Below, one piece after another: positions 72-55,414 of a DNA stretch of 64,000 bases; positions within the stretch are counted from its first letter, which is position 1, and the number at the start of each line of letters is the position of its first letter. Below the pieces are notes generated by a model. It was not told the DNA's origin. It did no database searches and was given only the letters and a program-made list of their open reading frames with translations. Source of the DNA: an uncultured Clostridia bacterium (GTDB lineage Bacteria; Bacillota; Clostridia; Saccharofermentanales; Saccharofermentanaceae); contig CAMIYM010000006.1 of the NCBI GenBank assembly GCA_946403085.1, positions 66,131-130,130 on the forward strand, read 5' to 3'. A program made the position numbers and the translations under genes.

Positions 72-980
72 TTACTTTCCGATATAGCTGTTCATTGCAG
101 AAGTATCGTACTTCTTAAGCACTTCAACAACCTTGTCGTGATTTGCAGCGCTCATCTCACAAAGAGGAAGTCTGCAGGGACCAGCATTCCAGCCAAGGAT
201 ATTCATTGCTTCCTTAACAGGAATAGGATTAACTTCACAGAACATAGCCTTAACGAGAGGAATGAAACCGATCTGGGCATTCTTTGCATCCTCTGTCTTT
301 CCATCGATGTAATCGTGGATCATCTTGGATGTTTCCTTAGGAAGGATGTTAGCAATAACGGAGATTACACCCTTAGCACCAAGTGAGAGCATAGGAACTG
401 CAAGTCCATCCTCGCCTGAATAGAGTGCATATCTGTCACCGCAAAGACTGTAGATCTCAGGAACCTGTGAGAAGTTACACTCCTTAACGCCTATGATGTT
501 CTCGTAAACAGAGAGTCTCTTCAAAAGCTCAGGGCTGATATTAACGTTTGTTCTTGAAGGAACATTGTAAAGGATGATAGGAAGCTCAGGTACAGCCTCA
601 GCGATCTTCGCATAGTGGCGGAAAAGACCTTCCTGTGTGCACTTGTTGTAGTAAGGTGTTACGAGCAAAGCAGCATCAGCACCAAGCTCATAAGCCTTCT
701 TGGTAAGTTCAATTCCGAAAGCAGTATCATTTGAACCTGTTCCGGCAATTACGGGAACACGGCCTGCAACAGTATCTACAGCACACTTGATAGCATCGAT
801 ATGCTCCTGCTCAGTCATAGTAGCAGCTTCACCGGTGGAACCGCAGATAACGATAGCGTCGATGCCCTGCTTGATTTGGAATTCAATAAGCTTCTTGAGC
901 TCTTCGAAATTGATTCCGCCATTTTCAAAAAACGGAGTGACAATAGCAACACCGGCACCAACAAATACAGGCTTGGACAT
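72..980 (-). CDS. dapA: 4-hydroxy-tetrahydrodipicolinate synthase
   Basis: The translation is full-length DapA-like (GVAIVTPF, GSTGEA, TPYYNK, LYNVPSRT). I prefer the internal ATG at 980 (MSKPVF...) because GGGAGG lies 7 nt upstream. The track ORF extends to 995. Confidence 0.9.
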   Translation of the reverse strand: MSKPVFVGAGVAIVTPFFENGGINFEELKKLIEFQIKQGIDAIVICGSTGEAATMTEQEHIDAIKCAVDTVAGRVPVIAGTGSNDTAFGIELTKKAYELGADAALLVTPYYNKCTQEGLFRHYAKIAEAVPELPIILYNVPSRTNVNISPELLKRLSVYENIIGVKECNFSQVPEIYSLCGDRYALYSGEDGLAVPMLSLGAKGVISVIANILPKETSKMIHDYIDGKTEDAKNAQIGFIPLVKAMFCEVNPIPVKEAMNILGWNAGPCRLPLCEMSAANHDKVVEVLKKYDTSAMNSYIGK

Positions 981-1130
981 ATATATGCCTCCCAAAAATA
1001 TTACAAAATAGTGGTTAAAATGCCTGAAAGCGCATTCTGACTAGTGGATTTTATCACCATATATTATAAATAGTCAATTTATACTTCAGGGGTGTACATC
1101 TGTACTTCCACAGTGTACATTTCAGGCTTA

Positions 1131-3395
1131 TCAGCCGTCTTGAGGATCGTTATCAAATGACATCGGATACTTCGTATGATCGAAATCCTCTATAAGCCGT
1201 TTAAACACACCGTTGATGGCTGATTTATTAACAGCTTTGATGACAAATGACATTCTGTACTTGCCTCTAAGCTCATATATAACACAGGGCATAGGACCGA
1301 AGATCTCGAACTGATACCTTTTGTCCTGAAAACCTATAAAGTCGTTCAGATACTTCGCCAGTTCATTAGCTCTCCTGATAAGAAGTTCCTCATCAGCAAG
1401 TGATAAGACTATCTCTCCTATCGCCTTATACGGAGGAAGCTTGAGTTTTTGTCTGTATTCGATCTCCTGATCATAGAAAGCTCTGTAATTCTGAGTACAT
1501 GCAAACCGGAACAATGGCTGGTCAGGTCTGTAACTCTGGATAAACACTTTACCGGGATGATCTCCCCTGCCGGCTCTGCCAGCAGCCTGAGTAATCAGCT
1601 GGAAAGCCCTTTCAGATGCCTTGAAAGAAGATGAAGCAAGCATAAGATCTGCTCCCAGGACGCCGACAACAGTAACATCCGGGAAATCAAGACCTTTGGC
1701 GATCATCTGTGTTCCTATAAGAATAGAGGCTTCTTTTCTAGCAAACTTCTCGATTATCTCTTTATGTGCACCGGGTGTCATCGTTGAATCCTGATCCATT
1801 CTCAGAACATTCTCATGAGGAAACACCTTATGAAGGAACTCTTCCAACTGCTGCGTTCCGAAGCCTGCCTTAGTAAACTTATTGCTGTTGCAGAAAGAAC
1901 ATCTTGCCTCATAAGACGGAATAGTATATCCGCAGTAATGACAGACAAGACTCTGTGTACCGTTTCTTCTGTTGTTATGTAGAGTCATTGCCACAGAACA
2001 GTTTTTACAGACTACAGATTCACCGCAGTCTTCACATACAAGAGTTCTCGAGAATCCTCTTCTGTTAAGGAGAAGGATAACCTGCTTATTCTCAGAAAAA
2101 GCAGCTGACATAGCCTGTCTTAACGGAAGCGAGAGCATATCACCGCTTCCGAGCTTGACCTGTTCTTTCATATCAACAGGGATTATCTCGGGAAGTACTG
2201 CCTCCTGCCTTGCTCTTGTCTTAAGTTCCAGAAGCTTATAAGCACCTGCCTGTGCAGCATAAAAGCTTTCAACAGAAGGGGTTGCCGAACCAAGTACGAC
2301 ACTGCAGCCTGTGATCTTAGCTCTCATTCTTGCGATATCTCTCGCAGAATATCTCGGATGGGATTCAGCCTTATAAGAACCATCATGTTCTTCATCAAGG
2401 ATAATAAGTCTGAGATTAACGGCAGGAGCAAATACGCCGCTTCTAGGACCGACTATAACACGTGCCTTTCCTGTCCTGATGTTATTCCACTGTTCATAAC
2501 GCTGCTTATCAGTAAGTCTGCTGTGCAGAACTGCGACACTGTCGCCTAATCTGCCTTTTATCCAGTTTATGGTCTGAGGTGTTAGCGAGATCTCAGGAAC
2601 CATATAGATGACACTTCCGCCCTCATTGATGACTTTCTTGGCAATATTTAGATAGACTTCCGTCTTACCGCTTCCGGTAATTCCGAAAAGCAGATAGGTG
2701 TTGTCTTTCTTCTCATCAATTCCTTCAAGTATCCTGGCAATTGCATTTTTCTGTTCTTCGCCAAGATCATATTCTTCCGTAAACTTTCCTTCAGGAACAT
2801 CTCCTGTAACAGAAATAACCGGCACCTCACTATCAGAACTTTCCTTGCTAAGGATAACCAAACCTTTATCTTCCAAAGCTTTGATCTGATTGGCCGAACA
2901 GGATAATGAAGACATTATCTCTTTACGTGAACACTTACCTCTTTCGAGAAGATACTCGAGGATATTTATATGAGCGACCGATCTTAAGATCTCACTGTCT
3001 AATACACTCTGTGCGGCATCTTTTGAGACGAGATCCACAAAGACCTCGACAGGGTTCTTGTGATTAACAACACAAGACGGGACCATAAGTTCAACAACAT
3101 CACCTCTGGTGCAGTTAAACCTGTCACTGATCTTGTCTATCAACTGGATCTGGTCACTGTTTAATACTGGCTTGGAGGATATGAGAGAAGCAATATCCTT
3201 TATGCTTCCCTCATCACCTTCAAAGTCATCTTTTAATTCAACTATAACGCCACAGCGTTCAGAATCACCTTTGCCGAAAGGAACTGAAACCAGAGATCCG
3301 GTAAACGTACCTGATCTTAATTCTTCAGGCACACGATAAGTGTATAAATTATCTGTCTGCCTTACGGCTCCTCTAAGGATAACGCTGCAAAACAA
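1131..3395 (-). CDS. priA: primosomal protein N' (replication restart helicase PriA)
   Basis: 754 aa with Walker A GITGSGKT, a DEEHD box and a Cys-rich zinc-binding insert (CEDCG..CKNCS..CHYCG..CSFCNS). The N-terminal YTYRVPEEL motif is present. The start is TTG, with GAGG 8 nt upstream. Confidence 0.9.
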   Translation of the reverse strand: MFCSVILRGAVRQTDNLYTYRVPEELRSGTFTGSLVSVPFGKGDSERCGVIVELKDDFEGDEGSIKDIASLISSKPVLNSDQIQLIDKISDRFNCTRGDVVELMVPSCVVNHKNPVEVFVDLVSKDAAQSVLDSEILRSVAHINILEYLLERGKCSRKEIMSSLSCSANQIKALEDKGLVILSKESSDSEVPVISVTGDVPEGKFTEEYDLGEEQKNAIARILEGIDEKKDNTYLLFGITGSGKTEVYLNIAKKVINEGGSVIYMVPEISLTPQTINWIKGRLGDSVAVLHSRLTDKQRYEQWNNIRTGKARVIVGPRSGVFAPAVNLRLIILDEEHDGSYKAESHPRYSARDIARMRAKITGCSVVLGSATPSVESFYAAQAGAYKLLELKTRARQEAVLPEIIPVDMKEQVKLGSGDMLSLPLRQAMSAAFSENKQVILLLNRRGFSRTLVCEDCGESVVCKNCSVAMTLHNNRRNGTQSLVCHYCGYTIPSYEARCSFCNSNKFTKAGFGTQQLEEFLHKVFPHENVLRMDQDSTMTPGAHKEIIEKFARKEASILIGTQMIAKGLDFPDVTVVGVLGADLMLASSSFKASERAFQLITQAAGRAGRGDHPGKVFIQSYRPDQPLFRFACTQNYRAFYDQEIEYRQKLKLPPYKAIGEIVLSLADEELLIRRANELAKYLNDFIGFQDKRYQFEIFGPMPCVIYELRGKYRMSFVIKAVNKSAINGVFKRLIEDFDHTKYPMSFDNDPQDG

Positions 3396-3405
3396 TGGAC
3401 TAACC

Positions 3406-6400
3406 TCACATCAGATCGAAAAGATTAATCTGGGCACTTTCAGGAAGATCATCAAGAATTCCGCCGTATTCCAGGAGTTTCTGAGTAACGGACTGTCCTA
3501 CACCTGTTCTCTTCATGAAATCATCACGGTTCTTAAAAGCACCGCCCTCTTCACGTGCCTTTTCAATAGCTTCACCGTTGGCCGGAGAGACAGAACTAAT
3601 GGCACAGAAAGGAGGTCTGATAAGCTTATCGCCGGCCTTCGCGAACTTCTTGCCTAAAGACTCATTAAGCGTGATAGGTGCAAAAGTTATTCCTCTCGCA
3701 TACATCTCTTCAACCAGCTCATAGAAATAGTACTTAAGCTTGGTATTAGGATCGCCTTTCGCATGCATCTCATCAGCAAGTTCTATTCTTCTCTTCTTTA
3801 CCTTTTCGGGTCCGTTGCACATGTCTTCAGCATTGAACAATCCTTCACCTCTGTTAGTAAAGAATGAGCAATAGTATTCTTCAGGATAGTAAACCTTAAA
3901 CCATGCGACACGGAGCGTGGAAATTGCATAAGCTGCAGCATGTGCCTTAGGGAACATGTATTTGATCTTCTGACAGGATTCGATATACCAGTCAGGAACA
4001 CCGCACTCTTTCATTTCCTTAACATACTCAGGCCATTTCTCTACTTTGCCGGCTGCAACCTTACCTTTACGCACACCTTCCATGATGTCGAATGCATCCT
4101 TATTGGGAAGTCCCCAGTAGATAAGGCTGGTCATGATGGAGTCACGGCATCCGATTACCGAATTAAGGTCACAAATACCGTCTCTGATAAGATCCTGTGC
4201 ATTTCCGGTCCATACGTCAGTACCATGTGAAAGACCCATCAACTGAACGAGATCGTAGAATCTTGTAGGCTTTGTTTCCTTGATCATGCCACGTGCCATG
4301 TTCGTACCAAGCTCTGAAAGACCTAATGTGGCAGATCCGGCGTCTGTTGCATCTATTGGGAACCCTAATGCATCAGTACCGGTAAGAAGGCTCATGACCT
4401 TCTCGTCAGGGATCGGGATATCTGTGATCGTAACCCCCGTAATATCACTGAGCATTCTTAATACCGTAGGATCAGCGTGGCCTAAGATATCGAGTTTTAA
4501 GATAGTGTCATGCATCGCACGGAAGTCAAAGTGTGTTGTAATGATTCCGCAGTCAGTCTTATTCGCAGGGAACTGGATAGGTGTGAATTCATAGATATCC
4601 ATTTCCTTTGCGATAACGACGATTCCGCCAGGATGCTGTGATGTCGTACGCTTTACACCAATAATATCTCTTGCCATAAATGCAAGATGTGCCTGTGTGA
4701 AAGGTTCTCCCTTCTCCTCACAGATCTTGCGGCAAACACCATATGCGTTCTTATCCTGGTAAGCACCGATAGTACCGGCCTTGAACGTATGTGTACCACC
4801 GAAGAGAACGCCTACATATGCATGCGCTCTCGGCTGATATTCACCTGAGAAGTTAAGGTCGATATCAGGCTGCTTATCACCCTTAAATCCGAGGAATGTC
4901 TCGAAAGGAATATCCTGTCCGTCAGGGATCAGCTTCTCTCCGCACTCAGGACAATTCATCGGAGGAAGATCATAACCGGAACCATACTTACCGCTGTTAT
5001 CAAACTGGGCATAGTTACACTTCGGACACCTGTAATGTGGAGGAAGGGGATTAACTTCAGAAATACCGCACATCGTAGCGGCAAATGAAGAACCTACTGA
5101 ACCTCTGGATCCTACAACATATCCGTCGTTATTGGACTTCTTAACGAGTCTGTAAGCTATGTAATACATGATCGCATAACCGTGACCGATAATGGAATCG
5201 AGTTCTCTGTCGAGTCTTGCCTTAACGACTTCATTAAGGACACCCTTATGACGGTACATCCTGTTCGCTCTGGTATAAGCGATATCTCTAACATCGGCAG
5301 CAGCTCTTGCGATCTGCGGAGGATAAGATCCGTCAGGGAAAGGCTTTATTCCGAATTCGATCATATCAGCGACAGCATTGGTATTATCGATTACAACCTC
5401 TTCTGCCTTCTTTTCACCAAGATAGGAGAATTCGGAAAGCATCTCATCAGTTGTTCTGAAATACAGATCGCTCTGCATCTCAGCGTCACTGAATCCCATG
5501 CTCATCAACATATACTTTCTGTAACGTCCATCCTCTTTATTAAGGAAGTGAGAGTCAGTTGTGGCACAGCACATCATGCCGTGATCATCAGCTGTCTCCA
5601 CGAGGAGTTCATTTATAATGCGGATATCATCCTCATTAAGAGGAACAGTTCCTGTATCAGACTTTGAAGGATCCTGTCTCATTAAGAACATGTTATTGCA
5701 AAGAGGCTGGATCTCAACATAGTCATAAAGGCTCAAGATCTTCTTGAATTCTTCGGACTCTTTCAGGAACTCTCTAGTAGCATTTCTGTCTTTGTTAAGT
5801 CTTCTGTAATTGGTTATTACATAACGGAAGATCTCACCACGCTCGCAAGCACCGCCGACAATGATTCCGGATTTGAAATACTTAAGTAAGCTCTTAGGTG
5901 TTCTTGGTCTTCTTGAATAGTAGTGTATCTGAGACTCTGAAACGATACGGTAAAGGTTATAAAGTCCCATATTAGAACGCACAAGATAGATGATGTGGTA
6001 CAAAGGTGCTTCAGAAACAGCACCATTTTTCTTTGTGGACTTGATCTTTTCAGGCGTGTAATGACCTGCAGAATAGTTAATGGAAAGAGCATCAACCGTT
6101 CCTGCATCAGACAAACACAAAGATAATAATGATGCAGACTTATAACAAGCACTGAACATCTCATCAAATTTGTCACCGCAAGGACTGTAAACAAACTTAG
6201 CCCCTTTCTCTGAAAGCGCCTCGTCTATGTTCTTGTACTGGTTCTTGTAGAATGTCTCAAGAATATCCTCATCTGAAGTTGCAGGCATAAGGAACTTATG
6301 TCTGTAGTAGATCTGGTCTTCTATGTTAATGCCATATCCGGCACGTCTGAGGAATGCCAGAGTAGTAAATATATCCGGACCGGTAATATAAGAATCTCCG

Positions 6401-8355
6401 ATGAATTCAAGGAGTTCTCCCATAGCAAAATATGAATCGCAAGGTTCACCTGTACCGGGATAAATAGCATCATTAAATTCAGCATGAAAATCAGCTACAT
6501 GTTCGAAAACAAGTTCAGAAGGAATAACTTCATCTGTACCGTCAGCATATTCACCATTAATATCAAGATCGACATTAACAGTCATGCCCAATGGTTCATG
6601 CGGATCCAAAGGCTTTTTAGTAATGTTCTCATCTCTTAAACTCTCAGGGATCTCATCCGGATTCCAAAGAGACTTATCAATATCGTGAGAAGCGAATTCC
6701 ATCGCATCCTGATCAGATTCGCCTTCTTCTTCAGGCTTAACGGCTTTAAACCCCTTAAGTCTGAACTTTGAAGCGCATACGGTTGTAAATGTATCGCGCA
6801 GCGCATCATTGCCATTACGTTGAATAACGATAGATACAAAAGAACCGACAGACTTCGGCTTCTCAATAAAATTCAGAGCAGCATCATCATCTGCATCAGA
6901 AGGTTTGACCTTATCATTCTTAACATCATAAGGAAGGTTATAGAAAACCGTAGGACCGTCATCAACAAGATAGCCTTCACATCCGAGAATACACTTAATA
7001 GGTGCCTCTCCTGTATCTTTACGCTTCTTATTAATTCCCTTGGCTGCTTCAAATACATGCGGGAATGCCTGTACAACACCATGGTCAGTAACCGCAACAG
7101 CACTGTGTCCGAAAGAAGCTGCAAGCTTAACAAGATCAGCAGGCTCAGTAGTAGCATCACTCTCACTCATCTTGGTATGCACATGCAGTTCTACTCTCTT
7201 ACGCTCAGCAGTATCTTTTCTCTTAGGAGGCTGCTCAGCACTGAAAAAGCCTGATACTCTCAGTGTCTTATCACCGGTGAAAGAATCATTCTCGACATTA
7301 CCCTGAATGCCGACAAATCCGCCTTTTCCGAACTCTTTCTGGAAACCGTCAGCCTCTTCCGGCTTAAGAAATGCTATGCATGAGATTCCGTCTGTGTCAT
7401 CAAGGCACATGAACTTTACGATAACGCTCTTACCGGTCTTAGCAAGCTTAAAAGAGTCGTCGTTAAATGAGATATTACCTGCAATATTGACATCAAAACA
7501 ACCGACAGTAAGATTAGCTATCTTCATGAAAGTAGCCTGCTTCTTAACACGGCCGTAGAGCTGATTCTCAGCATTTTCTTTTGCTTTATAAAAAGACTGC
7601 TTATCTTCCTGCTTAGCTTCTTTTCTTGCCTGCTCAGCTTTAAATGCCCAGGAATCCTTTCCTGCAGAAGCAGCATCGGACTCCTTGGATTTGTCATCCT
7701 TCTTTTTCTTGGTTCCCTTCTTCGAAGAATCTTCTACGGGTTCTTCTTCAGGGAATTCTATACGGCCTTCCTCTATGGCACGAATGATATCGTCATCAGG
7801 CGACATATCACTTCCTGCCATATCGATATTGCTGATCTTGATCTCGTATGTTCCCTGGAGCTGGTCTCCAATACAGATCTCTGTAGCTTCTCCAACAGAA
7901 TTGATTATTCTCTCCCTGTCTGATTTGCCAAACATATTCGCCCATCCGGAAGGTATATCAATATAGGTGATAAAACCACCTGCAGGGCTGTTGTCATAAT
8001 CAATATCGGCTGTAAGACCAATAAAGTCAGCTATATCACCCGCTCCGTCCTGACTGTCACGGGTAATATAGTACTTGATAAGCTTTGATATCTGTCCGTA
8101 AATGACAGGGAAATTAGTACTGTCAATACCGCTGAACAAAAGATTTACTTTTGTTCCGAAATCCTTCTCGAGTTCTTCTACAAAAGGAACAATGCTGTTA
8201 TTGTCCTTAAGTGAATCTACACCGCCTAATACAAGATTAATTGATTGTTTTGCCTTATAAATATCGACCTTAGTTACTGTAAGGTCACAAAGGTCTTCAA
8301 ATCTGCCGTCTTCTACTTTGAATAACTCAAGTAGCTTTACACTTTTCTTCTCCAA
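3406..8355 (-). CDS. polC: DNA polymerase III alpha subunit, PolC type; unusually long at 1649 aa with a divergent exonuclease insert
   Basis: Contains PHP motifs (HVHTKMS, VTDHG), a zinc module (CPKCNY..CPECGEKL), and palm/fingers regions (GSVGSSF, PDIDLNF, HPGG). It sits in the syntenic position after ispG. The TTG start overlaps the ispG 3' end by 29 nt, so the exact start is uncertain. Confidence 0.9.
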   Translation of the reverse strand: MEKKSVKLLELFKVEDGRFEDLCDLTVTKVDIYKAKQSINLVLGGVDSLKDNNSIVPFVEELEKDFGTKVNLLFSGIDSTNFPVIYGQISKLIKYYITRDSQDGAGDIADFIGLTADIDYDNSPAGGFITYIDIPSGWANMFGKSDRERIINSVGEATEICIGDQLQGTYEIKISNIDMAGSDMSPDDDIIRAIEEGRIEFPEEEPVEDSSKKGTKKKKDDKSKESDAASAGKDSWAFKAEQARKEAKQEDKQSFYKAKENAENQLYGRVKKQATFMKIANLTVGCFDVNIAGNISFNDDSFKLAKTGKSVIVKFMCLDDTDGISCIAFLKPEEADGFQKEFGKGGFVGIQGNVENDSFTGDKTLRVSGFFSAEQPPKRKDTAERKRVELHVHTKMSESDATTEPADLVKLAASFGHSAVAVTDHGVVQAFPHVFEAAKGINKKRKDTGEAPIKCILGCEGYLVDDGPTVFYNLPYDVKNDKVKPSDADDDAALNFIEKPKSVGSFVSIVIQRNGNDALRDTFTTVCASKFRLKGFKAVKPEEEGESDQDAMEFASHDIDKSLWNPDEIPESLRDENITKKPLDPHEPLGMTVNVDLDINGEYADGTDEVIPSELVFEHVADFHAEFNDAIYPGTGEPCDSYFAMGELLEFIGDSYITGPDIFTTLAFLRRAGYGINIEDQIYYRHKFLMPATSDEDILETFYKNQYKNIDEALSEKGAKFVYSPCGDKFDEMFSACYKSASLLSLCLSDAGTVDALSINYSAGHYTPEKIKSTKKNGAVSEAPLYHIIYLVRSNMGLYNLYRIVSESQIHYYSRRPRTPKSLLKYFKSGIIVGGACERGEIFRYVITNYRRLNKDRNATREFLKESEEFKKILSLYDYVEIQPLCNNMFLMRQDPSKSDTGTVPLNEDDIRIINELLVETADDHGMMCCATTDSHFLNKEDGRYRKYMLMSMGFSDAEMQSDLYFRTTDEMLSEFSYLGEKKAEEVVIDNTNAVADMIEFGIKPFPDGSYPPQIARAAADVRDIAYTRANRMYRHKGVLNEVVKARLDRELDSIIGHGYAIMYYIAYRLVKKSNNDGYVVGSRGSVGSSFAATMCGISEVNPLPPHYRCPKCNYAQFDNSGKYGSGYDLPPMNCPECGEKLIPDGQDIPFETFLGFKGDKQPDIDLNFSGEYQPRAHAYVGVLFGGTHTFKAGTIGAYQDKNAYGVCRKICEEKGEPFTQAHLAFMARDIIGVKRTTSQHPGGIVVIAKEMDIYEFTPIQFPANKTDCGIITTHFDFRAMHDTILKLDILGHADPTVLRMLSDITGVTITDIPIPDEKVMSLLTGTDALGFPIDATDAGSATLGLSELGTNMARGMIKETKPTRFYDLVQLMGLSHGTDVWTGNAQDLIRDGICDLNSVIGCRDSIMTSLIYWGLPNKDAFDIMEGVRKGKVAAGKVEKWPEYVKEMKECGVPDWYIESCQKIKYMFPKAHAAAYAISTLRVAWFKVYYPEEYYCSFFTNRGEGLFNAEDMCNGPEKVKKRRIELADEMHAKGDPNTKLKYYFYELVEEMYARGITFAPITLNESLGKKFAKAGDKLIRPPFCAISSVSPANGEAIEKAREEGGAFKNRDDFMKRTGVGQSVTQKLLEYGGILDDLPESAQINLFDLM

Positions 8356-19226: not shown

Positions 19227-19303
19227 TGGTCGGAGTGACGGGACTTGAACCCACGACCTCTTGCTCCCTAAGCAAGCACTCTAGCCACCTGAGCTACACC
19301 CCG
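19227..19303 (-). tRNA. tRNA-Pro with anticodon AGG (A at wobble position 34)
   Basis: Hand-folded 77-nt cloverleaf: CGGGGTG/CACTCCG acceptor (C1:G72, A73, encoded CCA), GCTC/GAGT D stem, CTTGC-TTAGGGA-GCAAG anticodon arm, GTGGG-TTCAAGT-CCCGT T arm. With U33 and G37 in place, the anticodon reads A-G-G. Confidence 0.8.
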
Positions 19304-19330
19304 ATGAACAGCCTCGTTAAGGAAAAATAT

Positions 19331-19406
19331 TGGTCGGAGTGGCGGGACTTGAACCCACGGCCTCCTGCTCCCGAAGCAGGCACTCTACCACCTGAGCCAC
19401 ACCCCG
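19331..19406 (-). tRNA. tRNA-Pro (anticodon CGG)
   Basis: 76-nt cloverleaf with the same acceptor arm as the neighbouring tRNA. The anticodon arm is CCTGC-TTCGGGA-GCAGG, the T arm is GTGGG-TTCAAGT-CCCGC, and CCA is encoded. Confidence 0.85.
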
Positions 19407-46570: not shown

Positions 46571-47599
46571 TCAGATCTTGTATATCTCATCTGCAGAAGG
46601 TGCCGGCATAGGTCTGGTAATGCCATCAAGACCTATTGTCTTGGCGCCTTCAGAGGCTTCAGTGAATTCACCGATCACAGTAGCTCTTATGCCCTGCTCT
46701 TCCAAAGCCTTTATGACCTTATCAGGCTCAGGCGAAGCGATCATGAGCGCGCCTGAAGATATAAGCCTGAAAGGATCGAGCTTAAGAGCATCACAAATGG
46801 CCTTTGAGCAGTCAGTAAAAGGAACCAGGCGCTGATCGAGCGTAACACCTGTCTTCGAGAAATCTGCCATCTCAAAAGCAGCACCCTCTACTCCGCCCTC
46901 GGTTACATCGTGCATAAGATTAACGCAGGATCTCGGGAATCCTTCAAATGTAGATGAAGTATCCGATGAAGGCAAAGGACCCAGAATTGTGCCCTCCTTA
47001 ACAACGGAGATCAGTTCGCCATAAGTCTTTGCCTCTTCAATATATTCATCCGGGATCTTCCCAGCGAGCTTATCGCTATGCTCATTGGCTGCAATAAAAC
47101 TGCCTTCAATGGCGGCAGTCTTAGTAATGATCAACTTGTCACCGGGCTTTGCATGTCCCAAAGGAACAGGCGTACCCTTTTCGACGACACCGAATGCCGT
47201 CGATATGACCACAAATCTGTTCACACAGTCAGAAACTTCCGTATGACCGCCGACGATATCAACACCGAGTTTTCCTGCCTCACGGCTCGCCTGGTCGACA
47301 ATAGATACGATCTCATCCTCTGTTGCCGAAGGCGGTGCAATTATAACGATAAGGATACCTGTAGGCTGTATGCCGCAGGCGGCAATATCGTTGCATGATA
47401 CATGAATAGCTAGAGTACCGGATTCGCTTCCTCCGGCGGTGATAGGATCAGATGAAGTAACGAGAAGATTCTCACCGGTCTTGAGCCATGCACAGTCAGC
47501 ACCGATTCCGGCACCGGATAATGTCTTGCTGGATAATTGGGGCAGCCTCGACAGGACAAGAGATTCAAGCTGCTCGTCTGTTAATTTTCCGATTCTCAA
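46571..47599 (-). CDS. AIR synthase-related (PurM/ThiL/HypE-fold) protein of unknown specific function
   Basis: The N-terminal domain has GADCAW..SSDP and NDIAACG. The second domain has GGHTE. The overall two-domain layout matches the PurM superfamily. Confidence 0.65.
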   Translation of the reverse strand: MRIGKLTDEQLESLVLSRLPQLSSKTLSGAGIGADCAWLKTGENLLVTSSDPITAGGSESGTLAIHVSCNDIAACGIQPTGILIVIIAPPSATEDEIVSIVDQASREAGKLGVDIVGGHTEVSDCVNRFVVISTAFGVVEKGTPVPLGHAKPGDKLIITKTAAIEGSFIAANEHSDKLAGKIPDEYIEEAKTYGELISVVKEGTILGPLPSSDTSSTFEGFPRSCVNLMHDVTEGGVEGAAFEMADFSKTGVTLDQRLVPFTDCSKAICDALKLDPFRLISSGALMIASPEPDKVIKALEEQGIRATVIGEFTEASEGAKTIGLDGITRPMPAPSADEIYKI

Positions 47600-47626
47600 A
47601 ACTGCCTTCCCTTCTCCTTTCCAGTA

Positions 47627-48832
47627 TTAATCGAAAGGATTGATAACAATATCTTCTGTTCCCAATACGCCTGCTTCAACAAGCGATTCGATATCAAGGT
47701 CTTTTTCCGCCTCGATTATATCCTCAGGATGAGGATGTGTCTTGGGGTGCTTTGCGACAAATACTGTGCAGCAGTCTTCGTAAGGAAGGATCGAAGTCTC
47801 AAAAGCACCGATATCTCTTGAGATATCACATGTAGCCTGCTTGTCCATACCGATAAGAGGTCTTAAGATCGGCATCTTAACCACTTCATTGGTAGCGGCA
47901 ATAGCTTCCATTGTCTGTGATGCGACCTGTCCTAAGCTCTCACCCGTGATTAGGCACTTGCAGTCATTCTTCTGCGCAAGACGCTCTGCGATCTGGAGCA
48001 TAACACGGCGCATTGTAACTGTAAGCATATCTTGAGGCGAATGCTTGTAAAGGTCCAGCTGGATCTGGGTGAAATTAACGATATGAAGTGTCATACGGCC
48101 CGAATAGCCGGAAACGATCTTAGCAAGATCGATTACCTTCTGCTTGGCAAGATCACTCGTATAAGGATAAGAATGGAAATATACGGCATCGAGAGGCATT
48201 CCGCGGGAAGCCATCATGAAACCAGCGACCGGGCTGTCGATACCGCCTGATAAAAGGAGCATACCCTTTGCACATGTTCCGACAGGAAGACCTCTGTGGG
48301 CCATCATCTTACCTGAATAGATGTAATTGGATTCACGGATCTCGACATTAAGGATAAAGTCAGGATTCTTAACCTTTACGGTAAGTTCAGGATACTTCTG
48401 AAGGATCTGATAGCCGAGTTCTTCACAGATCTCAGGTGATGTCATCGGGAATGTCTTGTTGCCGCGCTTGCTCTCGACCTTAAATGTCTTAAGGTCAGGA
48501 TTACGGGCAAGAAGTTCATCAACGCAGATGAATGCATTCTCCTTAACAGATTCAAAATCACCTTCGAACTTTCTGGCAAGGCTTACGGATACAATACCGA
48601 AAACCTGGCAGACAGCCTTCATTATGTCTTCTGCTGCAGCCATGCTCTGGAAGTTCGGGTTATCCTCCTCCTTGGGTTCGATCCAGATCCTGCTCTGGCT
48701 CTGATAGATCTTAAGATCACCGAACTTTTTAAGTCTGTACTTAAGATTCATCTTGAGCTGGATCTCAAAAGAACCTCTGTTAAGGCCTTTAAGAGTTATC
48801 TCACCCATTCTTGCCAAAAGGACATTAGCCAT
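47627..48832 (-). CDS. thiI: tRNA 4-thiouridine(8) synthase ThiI (no rhodanese domain)
   Basis: A THUMP-type N-terminus (RMGEITLKG) is followed by the PP-loop LLSGGIDSPVA. Confidence 0.88.
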   Translation of the reverse strand: MANVLLARMGEITLKGLNRGSFEIQLKMNLKYRLKKFGDLKIYQSQSRIWIEPKEEDNPNFQSMAAAEDIMKAVCQVFGIVSVSLARKFEGDFESVKENAFICVDELLARNPDLKTFKVESKRGNKTFPMTSPEICEELGYQILQKYPELTVKVKNPDFILNVEIRESNYIYSGKMMAHRGLPVGTCAKGMLLLSGGIDSPVAGFMMASRGMPLDAVYFHSYPYTSDLAKQKVIDLAKIVSGYSGRMTLHIVNFTQIQLDLYKHSPQDMLTVTMRRVMLQIAERLAQKNDCKCLITGESLGQVASQTMEAIAATNEVVKMPILRPLIGMDKQATCDISRDIGAFETSILPYEDCCTVFVAKHPKTHPHPEDIIEAEKDLDIESLVEAGVLGTEDIVINPFD

Positions 48833-48842
48833 ATCTGTCTCC

Positions 48843-49982
48843 TTATCTCACCAGAAATTGATCATAGATCTCATCAACATGTGTGATGAATTCTTTTGCT
48901 TCATCCATCGTATTATATCTGGAGAAGCTGAGTCTTACCGCATTTGCAGCCGTTTTCCTGTCAACGCCCATCTCAAGGAGCACGTAAGATACCTTCTTCT
49001 GCTTGGCTGAACATGCGGAAACGGTCGATACATAAATATCGTATATCTCGAGGCAATGAAGCATCGTCTCGGATTCAAAGCCTTGGAATGAGACATTGAG
49101 TACATAAGGAAGCGCATCATCAGGTGAAAGGATCTTTGCTCCCCTTTCAGATAATTCTTTCCTGAGATAACTGTTGATCTCGCAGGCCTTTTCGCGGGCC
49201 TCCTCAATGCCTTCTGAAACTTCCTTCAAAGCTGCAAGGAAAGCACCAGCAAGCACAGGGCTCTGTGTTCCTGAGCGCATACCGTCCTGCTGTCCGCCTC
49301 CGAGTATCAGCGGATCGACCTTTATGCCCTTTTTGATATAAAGGACACCATTGCCTTTAACAGAGTGGATCTTGTGTCCTGAGAAAGAACACATATCCGC
49401 ACCGAGCTTTGAAAGATCTATCGGCATCTTTCCTAACGCCTGTACGCAGTCAAGATAGATAGCTGTTGAAGGAGAAACTGACCTGATGGTTCTCGAAATA
49501 TCCTCAAACGGAAGGACAGCTCCTGTCTCGTTATTTACAAGTGTGAAGCATGCCAATGCCACATCACCTTTGTTAAGCTCTTCAACGAGACTTGCCTCGA
49601 CAGGTTTTCCATCCATGCCGGCTTTGACATAACGGATCTCATAACCCTGCTTGGCAAGATATTCAAGACATTCCAAAGTAGCCTTGTGTTCAGTCTTTGT
49701 GGAGATAACGGCATTTCCCGCTCTCCTGTTACGGCTCATGTATCCCTTGATAGCAGTGTTGGCACTTTCTGTGGCACAGGACGTGAAAAAGATTTCTTCA
49801 GGCTTAGCGCCAAGAAGTCCTGCTGTCTCTCTTCTTATGCCTTCGTATGTTTCCATGGCCTTATTGCCAAGTTTATGCAGAGCTCCGGGATTCGCTGAAA
49901 CCGGATCTTCCGTAAGCTCGATCATCTTTGCTCTTACCGCTTCTGATACAAAGGTGGTTGCACTGTTATCGAAATAGATCAT
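48843..49982 (-). CDS. cysteine desulfurase (NifS/IscS family)
   Basis: Contains IYFDNSATT, the PLP lysine context FSGHKI and the active-site loop SACS. Confidence 0.85.
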   Translation of the reverse strand: MIYFDNSATTFVSEAVRAKMIELTEDPVSANPGALHKLGNKAMETYEGIRRETAGLLGAKPEEIFFTSCATESANTAIKGYMSRNRRAGNAVISTKTEHKATLECLEYLAKQGYEIRYVKAGMDGKPVEASLVEELNKGDVALACFTLVNNETGAVLPFEDISRTIRSVSPSTAIYLDCVQALGKMPIDLSKLGADMCSFSGHKIHSVKGNGVLYIKKGIKVDPLILGGGQQDGMRSGTQSPVLAGAFLAALKEVSEGIEEAREKACEINSYLRKELSERGAKILSPDDALPYVLNVSFQGFESETMLHCLEIYDIYVSTVSACSAKQKKVSYVLLEMGVDRKTAANAVRLSFSRYNTMDEAKEFITHVDEIYDQFLVR

Positions 49983-51272: not shown

Positions 51273-52028
51273 TCAGAGATTTGCTTCGGGTCCCTTGTAT
51301 CTGGGTTTGCCTTCTGAACCTTTGCCGTATTCGATCGCATCCTTGGGGCACTGGTTGATACAAGCCATGCAGTGCGTACAGTTCTTTCCCCATGACGGCC
51401 TGTTATCAACGATCGTTATATTTGACAGCGGGCATATGCGAGCACATTTACCGCAGGCGATGCACTTATCAGTCGCTCTGAACTTCTTGGTCTTCATGAA
51501 ATCTTTATAGTAAACATCTCTTACCCATCTGGTAACCGAATATTCAAAAGAGCCGATCTTCTTACTGTCCAGCGTATCCCCTGCCATAACAGTATCTGCT
51601 ATCTTTTCTATCACAGGAAGCGCTTCATTTATGATCCTGCTGTTCTCGTCTTTCCCCTTTGTCGTGAATAATGCTATGTAATTCTGCGGCATTACTACCT
51701 GGGCCACTCCCATGAACTCCATGCCTTTCAGCGTGCAAAGATCCATGCTGACATTAGGGGATATCCCCATTGAAGAAGCACAGGTAACAACAAAATATGC
51801 TTTCACACCCTTAGGAAAAGTTGCGGATTCTATGAATTCAGTCATAGTTCTTGCCATGGCAGACATGTAAGAGGGACAACAGAACAGATATACTCCGGTA
51901 TCTTTAAAGACCGGACTTTCATGGTCCTTCGTATACTTTGTGATATCAACAGCTTCCTGCCCTATTGCTCTTGCGATCCTTTCGGCAACGAACCGGCTGT
52001 TACCGGTACCTGAAAAATAAAAGACCAT
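51273..52028 (-). CDS. flavodoxin-like domain fused to a 2x[4Fe-4S] ferredoxin domain (EFR1-type ferredoxin)
   Basis: The N-terminal FYFSGTGNS flavodoxin-like phosphate loop is present. The C-terminus has CIACGKCARICP and CTHCMACINQCP cluster motifs. Confidence 0.7.
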   Translation of the reverse strand: MVFYFSGTGNSRFVAERIARAIGQEAVDITKYTKDHESPVFKDTGVYLFCCPSYMSAMARTMTEFIESATFPKGVKAYFVVTCASSMGISPNVSMDLCTLKGMEFMGVAQVVMPQNYIALFTTKGKDENSRIINEALPVIEKIADTVMAGDTLDSKKIGSFEYSVTRWVRDVYYKDFMKTKKFRATDKCIACGKCARICPLSNITIVDNRPSWGKNCTHCMACINQCPKDAIEYGKGSEGKPRYKGPEANL

Positions 52029-52040
52029 ACATTTCTCCTT

Positions 52041-52694
52041 TTACTTAAGAGGCATTATCACGTTTTCCATGAACTTTCTGGCGCCGTCTTCCTTAAGAAG
52101 CATGTTTAATGTCTTGCTTGAAGGATTGCCATCAACGATCATCCGTTCCCTGAAAGCTTTGAGTTTGTCCTTATACTCAGGAATCACCGAAGAACTCCTT
52201 ACCGATGCCAGATAGGATGTTACTGTATCAAGAGCCATCAATACCAATTCATCTTCCGTACCGGTCTTGATAAGAGAGTAAGGCATTCGTTCTTTTACAT
52301 ACCAGTTATCTTTTTCGTCATAGTCAGGAAGATGCTTATGCTTCTCGAAAACATCTTTAAGAAGCCTGTCGTTTAATCCATCCTGACCGCATCCGTAATA
52401 CTCAGCAAATACGCAGCGTTTCTTCTTCATGCTCATGGCATCGATAAGAAGATAAGGAAGGTTTACAGATTCTGACGGCATAAATGACATCGTTATAAGT
52501 TCCATTCCCATCTTTGTCGTCGTATGCATCAGCATGATATGACCGAATCCAGCTACATCATACTGATCCACGGCAAAACGCATCAGCGGAAGTATTCTCG
52601 GGTATTTCATCCTGGAATACATGTCCTCTTTCTTAAGGACACCGCCGTTACTAAGTATTAGTTCGGATGCACTCTGCTTCAGATTGGCTATCAT
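52041..52694 (-). CDS. hypothetical protein with an unverified remote resemblance to ferredoxin-dependent bilin reductases
   Basis: 217 aa, with a 12-nt gap to the downstream gene and an ATGA overlap with the upstream gene. FGHIMLMH..GMELITMSFMPSESVNLPYLLIDA and the C-terminal DGNPSSKTLNMLLKEDGARKFMENVIMPL line up with PcyA-type motifs as I recall them (see findings). Confidence 0.4.
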   Translation of the reverse strand: MIANLKQSASELILSNGGVLKKEDMYSRMKYPRILPLMRFAVDQYDVAGFGHIMLMHTTTKMGMELITMSFMPSESVNLPYLLIDAMSMKKKRCVFAEYYGCGQDGLNDRLLKDVFEKHKHLPDYDEKDNWYVKERMPYSLIKTGTEDELVLMALDTVTSYLASVRSSSVIPEYKDKLKAFRERMIVDGNPSSKTLNMLLKEDGARKFMENVIMPLK

Positions 52695-53536
52695 TTGCTG
52701 AAACTCTTTTTAATATATTCCTTAAAACTCATATCGCCTGCGACCGTATCGCCGACCATATCATGCGTAAGTGTCCATTTTGAGAATTTGATGATAGCTT
52801 CCTTGCCATTCTTCTTAAGCTTATTGATCCAGGCAAGCATATCGAATATTCCGGGAGATACCATCTTGATCACAGCGGGCTTGCCGGCTGCCTCAAAGCA
52901 CATTTTCGCGATCTCTTCATAAGAATACTTCTCTTTACCACCGACAGAATACATCTTATTCTGATCCAGCATGTGTGAGACGATAAATGCCGCAAAGTCT
53001 TCAGTAGATACGATATTGGCATATACGGGTTCTTTTCCAAGAAGGGTTACCTTACCCTTCTCGATCATAGGCTTGAACACTTTTATGATGTCGTAGAAAT
53101 ATCCGGTCGGACGGTGGATAACATACGTAAGACCGCTCTTTTTCAGTTCTTCCTCGAAAAGATATTTCGCATTGACCATCGGAACATCAGGAGCCTCGTT
53201 GGCTTTAACGACAGAGATATAGACAAAGTTCTTTATTCCGGCTTTTTTCGCTTCATTCAAAAGATTGATATTGCCCTGATAATCAATATCGTAGTTACTT
53301 ACAGTAGCTGAACCCTTGGTAAGACCTACTGTAGTGATCAGGACATCCGCACCGTCGCAAACGCCTTCAAGGGTCTTCGGATCAGTAACATCGATCTTAT
53401 GAAAAACATATCCTGATGAGATACCGATATCTCTTTGGGCTATGTCCAAAGCTATTACTTCATTACCGGATCTGATGAGCTCCCTGAAAACATCAGATCC
53501 AAGATTACCGTAAGCTCCTGCAAGAACAACCTTCAT
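52691..53536 (-). CDS. atypical SDR, NAD(P)H-binding, NmrA/DVR(BciA)-like
   Basis: The N-terminal Rossmann motif is VLAGAYGNLGS. Other matching segments are DYQGNINLLNEAKKAGIKNFVYISV, YVIHRPTGYF, EKGKVTLLG, STEDFAAFI and VGGKEKYSYEEI. Confidence 0.7.
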   Translation of the reverse strand: MKVVLAGAYGNLGSDVFRELIRSGNEVIALDIAQRDIGISSGYVFHKIDVTDPKTLEGVCDGADVLITTVGLTKGSATVSNYDIDYQGNINLLNEAKKAGIKNFVYISVVKANEAPDVPMVNAKYLFEEELKKSGLTYVIHRPTGYFYDIIKVFKPMIEKGKVTLLGKEPVYANIVSTEDFAAFIVSHMLDQNKMYSVGGKEKYSYEEIAKMCFEAAGKPAVIKMVSPGIFDMLAWINKLKKNGKEAIIKFSKWTLTHDMVGDTVAGDMSFKEYIKKSFSK

Positions 53537-53555: not shown

Positions 53556-54680
53556 TTATTTCATAGTAATCAGTTCATATTCACGTGTGCCTATTCCTAT
53601 CTTCTCAGCATGTTCCAGCGTCTCATTCCAGGAGACATTCGGATTGCTGTTATGCCAGTGATCACCATGATCGTGGAAATGAGGATCTGCCATGTTATCA
53701 CCGAGCTGGCTGTTGCGGATAGGTTCTGCTTTTTGACATAGATCGACACAAGCCTGATCAAGCGCGACCGGATCAAAAGATGCGAGCATTCCGATATCAG
53801 GAAGGATCGGTGCATCATTCTCTCCGTGGCAGTCACAGTTAGGAGATACATCAGTGATAAGGCTTATATGGAAATTCGGTCTGCCGCTGATTACTGCAGC
53901 CGTATATTCAGCCATTCTGCAGCCTAAAAGCTGTGGTGCATCCCAGTTATCGTTCTCTATGGCATCAAAAGCACAAGCTCCGATACAGCGTCCGCACCCT
54001 TTGCACTTATCAGGATCGATCCATGCTTTTTTATTCTCATAGCTTATCGCATCAGATCCGCACTCTTTGGAACATCTCCTGCATCCTCTGCACATATCAG
54101 CAATTACATGCGGATGGCCGCTCTGATGCTGCTGCATCTTTCCGGCACGGCTTCCGCAGCCCATACCGATATTCTTTATAGCTCCGCCGAAGCCTGCCTG
54201 CTCATGTCCTTTGAAATGAGTAAGAGAGATAAAGATATCAGCATCCATTACCGCTCTTCCGATGTAGGCTTCCTTGCAGTACTCTCCGTTCGGAACAGGA
54301 ACGATAATGTCATCTGTACCGCGGAGACCATCAGCAATAAGGATCTGACAGCCTGTAGTTACAGTATTGAATCCGTTCATGTTCGCACAATCAAGGTGCT
54401 CTAATGCATGCTTTCTGCTTCCGGGATAAAGAGTATTGCAGTCAGTAAGGAAAGGAAGACCGCCATTTTCCTTGATGACATCCGCAACTGCCTTGGCATA
54501 GTTTGGTCTCAAATAAGCAAGGTTTCCAAGCTCTCCGAAATGCATCTTGATCGCTACGAACTTACCGTCAAAATCAATTGAACCGATTCCCGCCATCCTG
54601 ATCAGCTTCTGAAGCTTCGCCGTAAGCGATACACCTAAGCCGGTTCTGAAATCGGTGAAATATACCTTTGACTTCTCCAT
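53556..54680 (-). CDS. DUF362-type protein with an inserted 2x[4Fe-4S] ferredoxin module
   Basis: Contains KVYFTDFR..VAIKMHFGE..LTDCNT (DUF362-like), CRGCRRCSKEC and CKGCGRCIGAC cluster motifs, and a downstream CDCHG. Confidence 0.7.
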   Translation of the reverse strand: MEKSKVYFTDFRTGLGVSLTAKLQKLIRMAGIGSIDFDGKFVAIKMHFGELGNLAYLRPNYAKAVADVIKENGGLPFLTDCNTLYPGSRKHALEHLDCANMNGFNTVTTGCQILIADGLRGTDDIIVPVPNGEYCKEAYIGRAVMDADIFISLTHFKGHEQAGFGGAIKNIGMGCGSRAGKMQQHQSGHPHVIADMCRGCRRCSKECGSDAISYENKKAWIDPDKCKGCGRCIGACAFDAIENDNWDAPQLLGCRMAEYTAAVISGRPNFHISLITDVSPNCDCHGENDAPILPDIGMLASFDPVALDQACVDLCQKAEPIRNSQLGDNMADPHFHDHGDHWHNSNPNVSWNETLEHAEKIGIGTREYELITMK

Positions 54681-54881: not shown

Positions 54882-55265
54882 ATGAGTTATTCAGCAAACA
54901 CAGAGCACACACCAATAATCTTTAATGACCATCATGGCGAGAGCCTTGCAGACGCTAACATCCGTATAGGCAACATCAACAGCGAGATCACAGAACTTCA
55001 GATCAAGATCCAGGCTATGTATCAGGTTATGCTCGATCAGGGGATCGATCCACAGGTGTTCGAAGACAAGATAGCGGAGATCATGAAGAACAGAACGCCT
55101 GCTTCTACGATACCCAAAGATTCCCAGCCTTGTCCGAGATGCGGAAGACAGGTTAAGAAATCAACCGTATCCCCGCTTCTTGGAAGATGTCTCTACTGCG
55201 GAAAAGATGTATCGTTCGCACCGACCTTCTTAAGTGGAAACACTCAGGAGAAACCGGCAGAGTAA
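54882..55265 (+). CDS. hypothetical small protein (127 aa) with a coiled-coil segment and a C-terminal zinc ribbon
   Basis: I prefer the ATG at 54882, with GGGAGGA 7 nt upstream. It has CPRCGRQ...CLYCGKD (CxxC-N17-CxxC). A terminator follows. Confidence 0.5.
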   Translation: MSYSANTEHTPIIFNDHHGESLADANIRIGNINSEITELQIKIQAMYQVMLDQGIDPQVFEDKIAEIMKNRTPASTIPKDSQPCPRCGRQVKKSTVSPLLGRCLYCGKDVSFAPTFLSGNTQEKPAE

Positions 55266-55285
55266 TCCATAATTATCACTTAAAC

Positions 55286-55325
55286 AAAAATATCCCCCGT
55301 CTTTATAAGAACGGGGGATTTTTCA
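55286..55325. terminator. bidirectional rho-independent terminator (serves the small + strand ORF and the - strand tRNA-Leu)
   Basis: ATCCCCCGT-N10-ACGGGGGAT is followed by TTTTT on the + strand and preceded by A5 (T-run on the - strand). Confidence 0.65.
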
Positions 55326-55327
55326 TC

Positions 55328-55414
55328 TGGTGCAGATGGCGGGACTTGAACCCGCACGAGATTGCTCCCACTAGCACCTGAAGCTAGCGCGTCTGCCAAT
55401 TCCACCACATCTGC
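55328..55414 (-). tRNA. tRNA-Leu (anticodon CAG)
   Basis: 87-nt class II tRNA with a GCAGATG/CATCTGC acceptor and encoded CCA. The anticodon arm is CTAGC-TTCAGGT-GCTAG, the long variable arm is TGGGAGCAATCTCGT, and the T arm is GCGGG-TTCAAGT-CCCGC. Confidence 0.85.

Follow-up and report, generated by a model that had tools for sequence, protein, structure and literature searches.

The 64,000-nucleotide stretch of DNA considered here (the window; contig CAMIYM010000006.1 of the uncultured Clostridia bacterium assembly GCA_946403085.1) carries on its minus strand a gene for a 217-residue protein which is, with very little doubt, a genuine and highly divergent member of the superfamily of the ferredoxin-dependent bilin reductases (FDBRs) and of red chlorophyll catabolite reductase (RCCR), and which lies between the genes of an NmrA-like short-chain dehydrogenase/reductase (SDR) and of a ferredoxin of the EFR1 family. 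We infer, giving this reading about an even chance of being right, that the protein would reduce a C=C bond in a substrate of the tetrapyrrole type, with electrons supplied by ferredoxin, in this case EFR1, and protons by Asp85; a second reduction would fall to the SDR. The known hosts of FDBRs are oxygenic phototrophs, the phages of these, and a few heterotroph lineages. The fold of the window protein and its probable chemistry are thus already known from other systems; what is new is a clade that lies below Pfam detection, a partner set made up of an SDR and EFR1, and the oxygen-free setting.

52041..52694, minus strand: FDBR/RCCR-fold gene (ATG start, 217 aa, TAA stop)

The open reading frame (ORF) is present as a single copy within the window and has a G+C content of 42%, against 44% for the window. 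The protein has neither a signal peptide nor a transmembrane segment, its N-terminus being a predicted amphipathic helix in the AlphaFold2 model, which fits a cytoplasmic ferredoxin-dependent enzyme.

Membership in the FDBR/RCCR Superfamily

The AlphaFold2 model of the protein, built on a 32-sequence alignment (pLDDT 94.3, pTM 0.91), shows one N-terminal helix, seven main strands in a sheet, and three long C-terminal helices. This is the alpha/beta/alpha sandwich that a preliminary description of this DNA, made from the letters alone, had proposed to look for, with the central antiparallel sheet lying between the N- and C-terminal helices. When the model is compared with the PDB by Foldseek, the first 46 matches are all chains of the FDBR/RCCR fold (probability 1.00, TM-score 0.58-0.79), namely PebB, PcyA, PebA, HY2, RCCR, PebS, PcyX, and the FDBR-like subunit of Ycf2-FtsHi (8xqw_H); the best match, PebB 6qx6, has an E-value of 1.2e-9 and a TM-score of 0.77, and at match 47 (E 0.43) the list drops to noise. 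Coproporphyrinogen oxidase (CPOX), which distantly shares the FDBR fold (Rockwell et al. 2023, PMC10151467), is found at rank 50.

At the level of sequence, the protein alone matches no Pfam or NCBIfam family and no sequence in the PDB, weak matches having been sought in Pfam and NCBIfam with the single sequence and 32 relatives, and in the PDB with phmmer and with hmmsearch using a close-family profile. The Pfam family PF05996, the gathering score of which is 31 bits, is not matched at E<=1 by the window protein, which fails that threshold, or at E<=10 by any of the 32 close relatives; membership in PF05996 by Pfam's own threshold is not established for the window protein. Matches to P22_AR_N (20.8 bits, cut-off 30.7), Arb1, CagY, and designed repeats were rejected as compositional, since all of them fall on the charged helix of residues 126-183.

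The family profile retrieves distant relatives, and of the 85 full-length ones tested, which span library-wide profile E-values from ~1e-70 down to ~5e-8, 49 match PF05996 by themselves. Among relatives checked individually, P0204 with 55 bits and P0191 with 39 bits exceed the gathering score, and a Lachnospiraceae relative 43% identical to the window protein gives a full-length match of 17.7 bits, which is sub-threshold. Approached from the other side, a clade-only profile (alignment A3) ranks PebS first and PebB second among 177,635 PDB sequences, with E-values that are sub-significant (0.067 and 0.32, respectively) and with alignments in the expected register. The comparison of A3 by HHalign with PebB, PebA, PebS, and PcyA, the four being taken as PDB sequences with engineered mutations reverted, gives a probability of 93.4% and an E-value of 2.5e-7 over 148 columns, as against E-values of 0.2-0.7 for the reversed and 20 column-shuffled controls. 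Because the transitive link through PF05996, the clade-only profile, and HHalign all agree, homology to the FDBR superfamily can be regarded as established.

The preliminary description had added that its motif matches would be a matter of chance if neither profiles nor structures showed a significant resemblance to the FDBR/RCCR fold. Such a chance likeness to PcyA, in a protein of unrelated fold or function, would fit the failure of the single sequence to match Pfam, NCBIfam, or the PDB and the nonsignificant BLASTP comparison described below, and is nevertheless extremely improbable, being refuted by 46 FDBR/RCCR-fold chains at Foldseek probability 1.00 with nothing else beside them, by HHalign with its controls, and by the 49 relatives that match PF05996.

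The likeness to PcyA was originally seen by eye, in an alignment of three fragments of the window protein with fragments of PcyA. The quoted window fragments are exact substrings of the ORF (residues 50-87, 122-144, and 188-216), and the PcyA sequence quoted beside them was accurate, in spite of the reservation expressed at the time, since all three of its fragments match PDB PcyA exactly (residues 70-107, 151-167, and 218-246). As pairwise BLASTP between the window protein and PcyA is not significant, the eye-alignment was a lead and not a proof, and independent tests were needed; against PebB, BLASTP is marginal (E 0.005 in a four-sequence database). The ungapped blocks of 38 and 29 residues score z = 4.3 and 4.5 over residue shuffles, values that do not amount to a true p-value given that the register was picked post hoc. 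That register is borne out by the hidden Markov model (HMM) alignments to PcyA, PebA, PebB, and PebS, by the clade-only profile against the PDB, and by HHalign. The match proposed for the mid-region is approximate: the profile places W131 on PcyA W154, and the LP of this segment does not fall on the LP of PcyA.

Active-Site Positions

The residue equivalences given in this section are those of HMM alignments, not of a structural superposition, and the conservation counts are from 126 superfamily sequences. The positions that can be located on the window are as follows.

52440..52478, minus strand: central-strand motif P73-x6-P80-x4-D85 (PSESVNLPYLLID), from profile alignments; P73 and P80 nearly invariant
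52440-52442, minus strand: D85, equivalent of PcyA Asp105 (PebS Asp105); Asp in 124/126
52491..52493, minus strand: T68, equivalent of PcyA His88; Thr or Ser in nearly all superfamily sequences
52302..52304, minus strand: W131, equivalent of PcyA Trp154, a biliverdin-contact residue; 126/126
52047..52133, minus strand: C-terminal helix block D188-L216 (DGNPSSKTLNMLLKEDGARKFMENVIMPL), with N190-P191 in place of the FDBR 'DP' motif

In all profile alignments D85 falls on PcyA D105, P73 on P93, and L79-P80 on L99-P100, which places the catalytic Asp where the by-eye alignment had put it, and the GNPSS...G..FM...MP helix is likewise aligned with the C-terminal helix of the FDBRs in every case. The replacement of the PcyA His by Thr, also noted from the letters alone, is seen in the same alignments, with T68 on His88. 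Further equivalences are those of Met56 to PcyA Glu76 (Met, Leu, or Ile in the superfamily), of Cys94 to Ser114 (Thr in most other clades), of Ser192 to Thr222 (Ser or Ala in the superfamily), and of Met214 to Phe244 (Phe in sister clades). Asn190 of the GNPSS motif occupies the position of PcyA Asp220, PebS Asp206, and HY2 Asp256; the clade of the window protein has Asn here, and clades c07, c08, and c11 have Gly. Glu98, invariant (126/126), falls on the acidic residue of the strand that bears 'D-x-Q-P' in the FDBRs. Asp105, His88, Glu76, Trp154, Ser114, Thr222, and Phe244 of PcyA are among its eleven biliverdin contacts (bioRxiv 10.64898/2026.08.07.743453), and PebS and HY2 use the Asp of the 'DP' motif (D206 and D256, respectively) in catalysis (PMC13446030 Table 2). 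K143 was considered as the counterpart of the biliverdin contact Arg149 and rejected, as the residue on which it falls is Arg166, in the 'FIRP' strand; no claim of propionate binding is made for it.

Since the window protein has neither Glu76 nor His88, Met56 and Thr68 being found at these positions, a proton relay and 18-vinyl reduction of the PcyA type cannot be the same in it, and the expectation of the preliminary description that the relay chemistry would differ is upheld. The loss of these two residues alone does not imply inactivity, because Pre-3 of the pre-PcyA proteins (Ala/Thr/Asp at the PcyA-triad positions) and PebS (Ala/Asn/Asp) are both active reductases (PMC13446030 Table 2); Glu76 and His88 are in fact missing from all of Pre-1 to Pre-3 (PMC13446030).

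The Operon and the Recurrence of Its Genes

In the window, the genes of the operon follow one another on the minus strand in the order DUF362, SDR, FDBR-like, EFR1, with a GGDEF gene 95 nt further on.

53556..54680, minus strand: DUF362 protein with an inserted 2x[4Fe-4S] domain, 374 aa (PF04015, E 6e-57; Cys motifs)
52691..53536, minus strand: NmrA-like atypical SDR, 281 aa (Pfam NAD_binding_10 and NmrA; GxxGxxG at residues 7-13)
51273..52028, minus strand: EFR1-family ferredoxin, 251 aa (NF038196, 243 bits, cut-off 75; Pfam Fer4, Flavodoxin_5)

The stop codon of the SDR gene and the start codon of the FDBR-like gene overlap by 4 nt as ATGA, and the EFR1 gene starts 12 nt past the stop of the FDBR-like gene, with an AAGGAG ribosome-binding site in the gap; a gap of 19 nt separates the end of the DUF362 gene from the start of the SDR gene. 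Promoters and terminators were sought by simple scans, which gave nothing above chance. The EFR1 protein combines an N-terminal flavodoxin-like domain with two CxxCxxCxxxC [4Fe-4S] motifs and is presumed to be the electron donor to the FDBR-like protein; in the literature searched, nothing informative was found on the EFR1 ferredoxin family. The PDB relatives of the SDR found by phmmer are NmrA, triphenylmethane reductase, SimC7, QOR2, and NDUFA9-type proteins. Its assignment as a bilin or anaerobilin reductase of the BLVRB or ChuY type is unsupported, since neither is among the phmmer matches listed, with the proviso that distant SDRs are hard to distinguish.

Among 38 genome loci that carry an FDBR-like gene, the SDR is found in 19, EFR1 in 18, and both together in 17. 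Three Lachnospiraceae loci have the FDBR-like gene ahead of the SDR (FDBR-like, SDR, EFR1 rather than SDR, FDBR-like, EFR1), from which it follows that the trio has survived rearrangement. The SDR is the best conserved of the three, with 84-87% identity where the FDBR-like protein has 67-73%. Clustering of all neighbors at the 38 loci brought out no further recurrent family. The Fe-S/ferredoxin operon described earlier is real in the window, and its conserved partners are EFR1 and the NmrA-like SDR only, to the exclusion of DUF362 and GGDEF. DUF362 was rejected as a core part of the operon, since it adjoins in only 4 of the 38 loci, at which it is 91-93% identical and far better conserved than the neighboring FDBR-like gene; in a fifth locus, L032, there is a weak match of 26% identity 4 kb off. 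It adjoins also in the close relatives L045 and L046. In the operon it stands first, as a gene that is accessory or specific to the lineage. GGDEF was rejected likewise, a close (69%) homolog adjoining the FDBR-like gene in only one of the 38 loci. The DUF362 protein also has a weak match to Lar_N, the N-terminal domain of lactate racemase.

The association with the SDR extends to the distant clade c11. At locus L052 of this clade (398-7183), the FDBR-like protein is 21% identical to the window protein and is encoded in an operon that begins with an alpha/beta-hydrolase, a TetR regulator, a flavin-reductase-like protein, an NmrA-like SDR, and DUF1295 (in c11 a membrane protein resembling steroid 5-alpha-reductase and isoprenylcysteine methyltransferase) and continues with a 205-aa membrane protein, the FDBR-like protein, and an [FeFe]-hydrogenase-like protein. 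The SDR of L052 is 55% identical to that of the window (E 1.7e-107). A survey of 80 metagenomic c11 loci (L054-L133), carried out as a 14-sequence alignment scan and counted only where the upstream DNA suffices, found the membrane protein in 46/54, DUF1295 in 19/24, the SDR in 12/14, and the flavin-reductase-like protein in 8/10; four c11 loci have an SDR 73% identical to that of the window. Since the SDR recurs in the c11 operon, a single SDR subfamily has kept its linkage to FDBR-like genes that differ by more than 75% in sequence, and no functional clue available is stronger than this linkage across clades. The c11 operon looks like a multireductase pathway for a lipophilic or pigment substrate.

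Other arrangements are found at individual loci. In Erysipelotrichaceae locus L001 (6698-7324, P0100), which has no SDR or EFR1 nearby, a flavodoxin-rubredoxin fusion (Flavodoxin_5 and RUBY_RBDX) is convergent to the FDBR-like gene and may be an alternative electron donor. In the Lachnospiraceae loci L048 (5633-6738) and L049 (371-1476), the FDBR-like gene (P0270) begins 2 nt after an ArsR-type HTH_5 regulator and stands beside an HMA-domain protein and a P-type ATPase, a setting that is not obviously redox-related; the cluster representative of P0270, P0121, is 43% identical to the window protein.

Proposed Reaction and Its Alternatives

In the reaction proposed for the window protein, a large, conjugated, carboxylate-bearing substrate, most probably a linear tetrapyrrole or another tetrapyrrole derived from chlorophyll or heme, would be held with the central antiparallel sheet on one side and the C-terminal helices on the other. 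EFR1, the co-transcribed flavodoxin/2x[4Fe-4S] ferredoxin, would supply electrons one at a time, and protons would be delivered via Asp85, aided by the hydroxyl group of Thr68 or by water, with the two-electron reduction of one C=C bond as the predicted net outcome. The translationally coupled NmrA-like SDR would then carry out an NAD(P)H-dependent hydride reduction of the same substrate, either as the second step or as the first.

The substrates known for the FDBR/RCCR fold arise by O2-dependent ring opening (Rockwell et al. 2023, PMC10151467). Because the hosts, as presumed strict anaerobes, should not carry out such ring opening, the plausible sources of a substrate are exogenous, such as dietary chlorophyll catabolites or bile pigments of the lower gut; anaerobically generated tetrapyrroles are a further possibility.

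It has to be said that a number of observations speak against a tetrapyrrole reductase of this kind. The enzymes of O2-dependent ring opening should be missing from presumed-anaerobic hosts, and no heme oxygenase, ChuW-type enzyme, phytochrome, globin/BBAG, V4R, or other tetrapyrrole gene is found in the annotated neighborhoods (+/-5-10 kb; whole genomes were not searched). In half of the 38 loci the FDBR-like gene has no SDR or EFR1 within 6 kb; the loci that lack both partners belong mostly to Erysipelotrichaceae and to relatives in the Oscillospiraceae, with identities of <=62%. The second proton donors of the characterized FDBRs are all replaced, by Met56, Thr68, and Asn190, and the biliverdin contacts Val90, Arg149, Asn219, and Lys221 of PcyA are not conserved in the window protein. 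The c11 operon would equally fit a lipophilic substrate that is not a tetrapyrrole, and to these points the silence of Pfam, NCBIfam, and the PDB toward the single sequence has to be added.

A narrower form of the tetrapyrrole reading concerns chlorophyll. No enzyme is known to have been assigned to the conversion of chlorophyll to phylloerythrin, and it is this gap, together with the formation of phylloerythrin in grazers, that motivates the idea of a chlorophyll-catabolite reductase. Phylloerythrin is made from chlorophyll during digestion by grazing animals (PMC13030745). The rumen branch with SDR and ferredoxin would accordingly reduce or isomerize diet-derived chlorophyll breakdown products, for which the phyllobilins of senescent forage, or pheophorbide or pyropheophorbide on the way to phylloerythrin (a vinyl-to-ethyl step), are candidate substrates, and it would form, together with its sister clades, the first oxygen-independent branch of the FDBR/RCCR family. 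We regard this specific proposal as a long shot.

Among the alternatives to a tetrapyrrole reductase, the one that survives best is an FDBR-fold reductase or isomerase recruited to a non-tetrapyrrole, plant-derived substrate. Candidate substrates are polyphenols or lignans on the one hand and isoprenoids or lipids, phytol and unsaturated fatty acids among them, on the other; the protein would work together with an SDR of the NmrA/PIP type in a pathway of reductive detoxification, or in one serving as an electron sink, of the kind that is typical of rumen bacteria. The c11 operon, with its alpha/beta-hydrolase, TetR, flavin-reductase-like protein, and DUF1295, and the NmrA/PIP-type SDR make this explanation plausible, the nearest solved relatives of the SDR running from NmrA and triphenylmethane reductase to SimC7, QOR2, and NDUFA9-type proteins, with BLVRB and ChuY not among the matches listed. 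The strong bias of the family to metagenome-assembled genomes (MAGs) from the herbivore foregut and gut is in line with it, as are the lack of a tetrapyrrole gene in the neighborhoods examined and of the second FDBR proton donors. Set against this, every characterized match to the fold, that is, the FDBRs, RCCR, and distantly CPOX, acts on tetrapyrroles (Rockwell et al. 2023, PMC10151467), and the most conserved residues of the family coincide with catalytic or biliverdin-contact positions of the FDBRs (Asp105, Trp154, the Thr222-like Ser192, and the Ser114-like Cys/Thr94). A non-tetrapyrrole substrate is on balance unlikely, and deserves to be kept in view.

A noncatalytic protein, in which the fold has been kept and the reductase chemistry lost, so that it would bind a tetrapyrrole as a carrier, sensor, or chaperone, is considered rather improbable. 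The exchange of Glu76, His88, and the second Asp for the nonionizable Met56, Thr68, and Asn190 would be explained by it, and the FDBR-like subunit of the chloroplast Ycf2-FtsHi (8xqw_H), one of the structural matches, may itself be a case of the fold kept without reductase chemistry; furthermore, some relatives are found in nonredox contexts (ArsR/HTH_5 with a P-type ATPase) or are membrane-anchored or fused. What makes this explanation less likely is that the catalytic Asp (124/126) and the redox partners are retained: Glu98 is found in 126/126, Pre-1 to Pre-3 and PebS are active without Glu76 and His88 (PMC13446030), and the tight linkage to ferredoxin and SDR, kept across gene orders and clades, favors redox chemistry.

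Comparison with Characterized Systems

PebB, PebA, PebS, and HY2 give the best profile matches to the window protein, which is 20-60 residues shorter than they are and 10-15% identical to them; they also include its best structural matches, PebA (2x9o) and HY2 (6kme) having TM-scores of 0.77 and 0.73 beside that of PebB. Common to these enzymes and the window protein are the strand P..(D)LP....D, an acidic residue on the strand after it (E98 versus the Asp of 'D-x-Q-P'), a basic residue on the 'xxR' strand (K143), and, at the C-terminus, the helix '(D/N)P....G......F...F/M'. It differs from PebS and HY2 in the Asp of the 'DP' motif, which in the window protein is Asn190 and in sister clades Gly. 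With PcyA it shares the fold and the equivalents of Asp105 and Trp154.

RCCR (2zxk, 3agc) has the same fold (TM-score 0.68-0.72, probability 1.00), the RCCR set overall scoring 0.58-0.72, below the FDBRs; the Pfam families listed for the window protein and for its relatives do not include RCC_reductase. RCCR uses ferredoxin to reduce a linear tetrapyrrole derived from chlorophyll, and an O2-dependent oxygenase acts before it (PMC10151467). Given the chlorophyll-rich habitat, it would be an attractive functional analogy.

The closest parallel outside the phototrophs is offered by the pre-PcyA proteins, which, like the window protein, have the FDBR fold in nonphototrophic hosts and are encoded next to an Fe-S protein, and of which Pre-3, with Ala/Thr/Asp against Met/Thr/Asp in the window protein, is also nonacidic at Glu76, with Thr at His88 and Asp at Asp105. 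They come from Proteobacteria, Chloroflexi, Acidobacteria, Planctomycetes, and other lineages, and their gene clusters comprise heme oxygenase, an Fe-S protein, two V4R proteins, and a BBAG globin in Pre-1 and Pre-3, and a B12-binding protein and a globin in Pre-2 (PMC10151467). The pre-PcyA genes are recognizable FDBRs, whereas the family of the window protein lies below Pfam detection, belongs to anaerobic Firmicutes, and has an SDR and EFR1 instead of the pre-PcyA neighbors. Neither of the pre-PcyA papers (PMC10151467, PMC13446030) mentions Firmicutes or Clostridia, in keeping with the earlier suggestion that a clostridial member would be new, and no paper tying FDBRs to rumen or gut anaerobes was found in the literature searched.

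Family, Hosts, and Significance

The preliminary description had called the protein an orphan, which is wrong except as regards naming and family assignment: 193 homologs are found at E<=1e-3, and an exhaustive profile search of 1.84 billion representatives defines a superfamily of 261 clusters at 50% identity. The named members are all annotated as 'hypothetical protein' and come from MAGs of Clostridiales, Oscillospiraceae, Lachnospiraceae, Erysipelotrichaceae, or Eubacterium. The proposal of an FDBR-superfamily member in a Firmicute host is corroborated by loci in MAGs of both Clostridia and Erysipelotrichia, mostly from the ruminant gut. The 38 loci are from species-representative genomes, at least 21 of which name in their titles a ruminant host (buffalo, sheep, goat, yak, or roe deer) and a gut compartment (rumen, omasum, abomasum, jejunum, or duodenum), and eight further loci belong to the RUG series, which we take to be rumen MAGs. 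One of the 38, L020, which carries the cassette, is from a cultured isolate, Lachnospiraceae bacterium LC2019. From taxonomy and habitat, the hosts are presumed to be strict anaerobes.

Members of clades c07 and c08 of ~260-275 aa, among them P0179, P0195, and P0204, have an N-terminal extension of 40-60 residues with weak matches to single-transmembrane families (LHC, DUF4179, 8xMP), a sequence feature which suggests that they are membrane-anchored. The FDBR-like domain is also found at the C-terminus of the fusion proteins P0163 (651 aa), P0240 (484 aa), P0169 (380 aa), and P0257 (333 aa); in P0163 it is preceded by a calcineurin-like metallophosphoesterase domain (Metallophos, E 4.5e-10).

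FDBRs, RCCR, and CPOX have been held to be ultimately O2-dependent, since oxygenases make their substrates (Rockwell et al. 2023, PMC10151467). The family described here adds to the fold a large unannotated branch, the 261 clusters, whose traceable members come from presumed anaerobic Firmicutes, mostly of the ruminant gut, and which is provided with a ferredoxin of its own and with an NAD(P)H reductase that co-evolves with it. In the herbivore gut, the FDBR fold probably has a role, so far undescribed, that does not depend on oxygen. Either FDBR chemistry is used by anaerobes on tetrapyrroles that are exogenous or anaerobically made (dietary chlorophyll catabolites, bile pigments, or products of the anaerobilin type), or the fold serves a new class of substrate, and either outcome widens the known scope of the FDBR/RCCR enzyme family. 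If the proposal regarding chlorophyll were true, it would provide a gene for a step of microbial chlorophyll catabolism in ruminants and an origin for the photosensitizer phylloerythrin. The compact three-gene cassette has practical links to ruminant chlorophyll metabolism, to photosensitization, and to bilin biotechnology.

Other Features of the Window

Outside the operon, a tRNA-Leu(CAG) gene is located at 55328-55414 on the minus strand and is followed by a strong terminator-like hairpin (55292-55319, minus strand); a 64-aa ORF on the plus strand that runs over this tRNA (55187-55381) is with near certainty not a real gene. The minus strand also carries two tRNA-Pro genes, at 19227-19406. 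Downstream of the GGDEF gene, at 46571-49982 on the minus strand, a cysteine desulfurase (Aminotran_5), ThiI, and an AIRS/ThiL-like protein form a cluster of the sulfur-transfer/thiamine type, which is syntenic in the close relative L045 and represents an ordinary housekeeping context.

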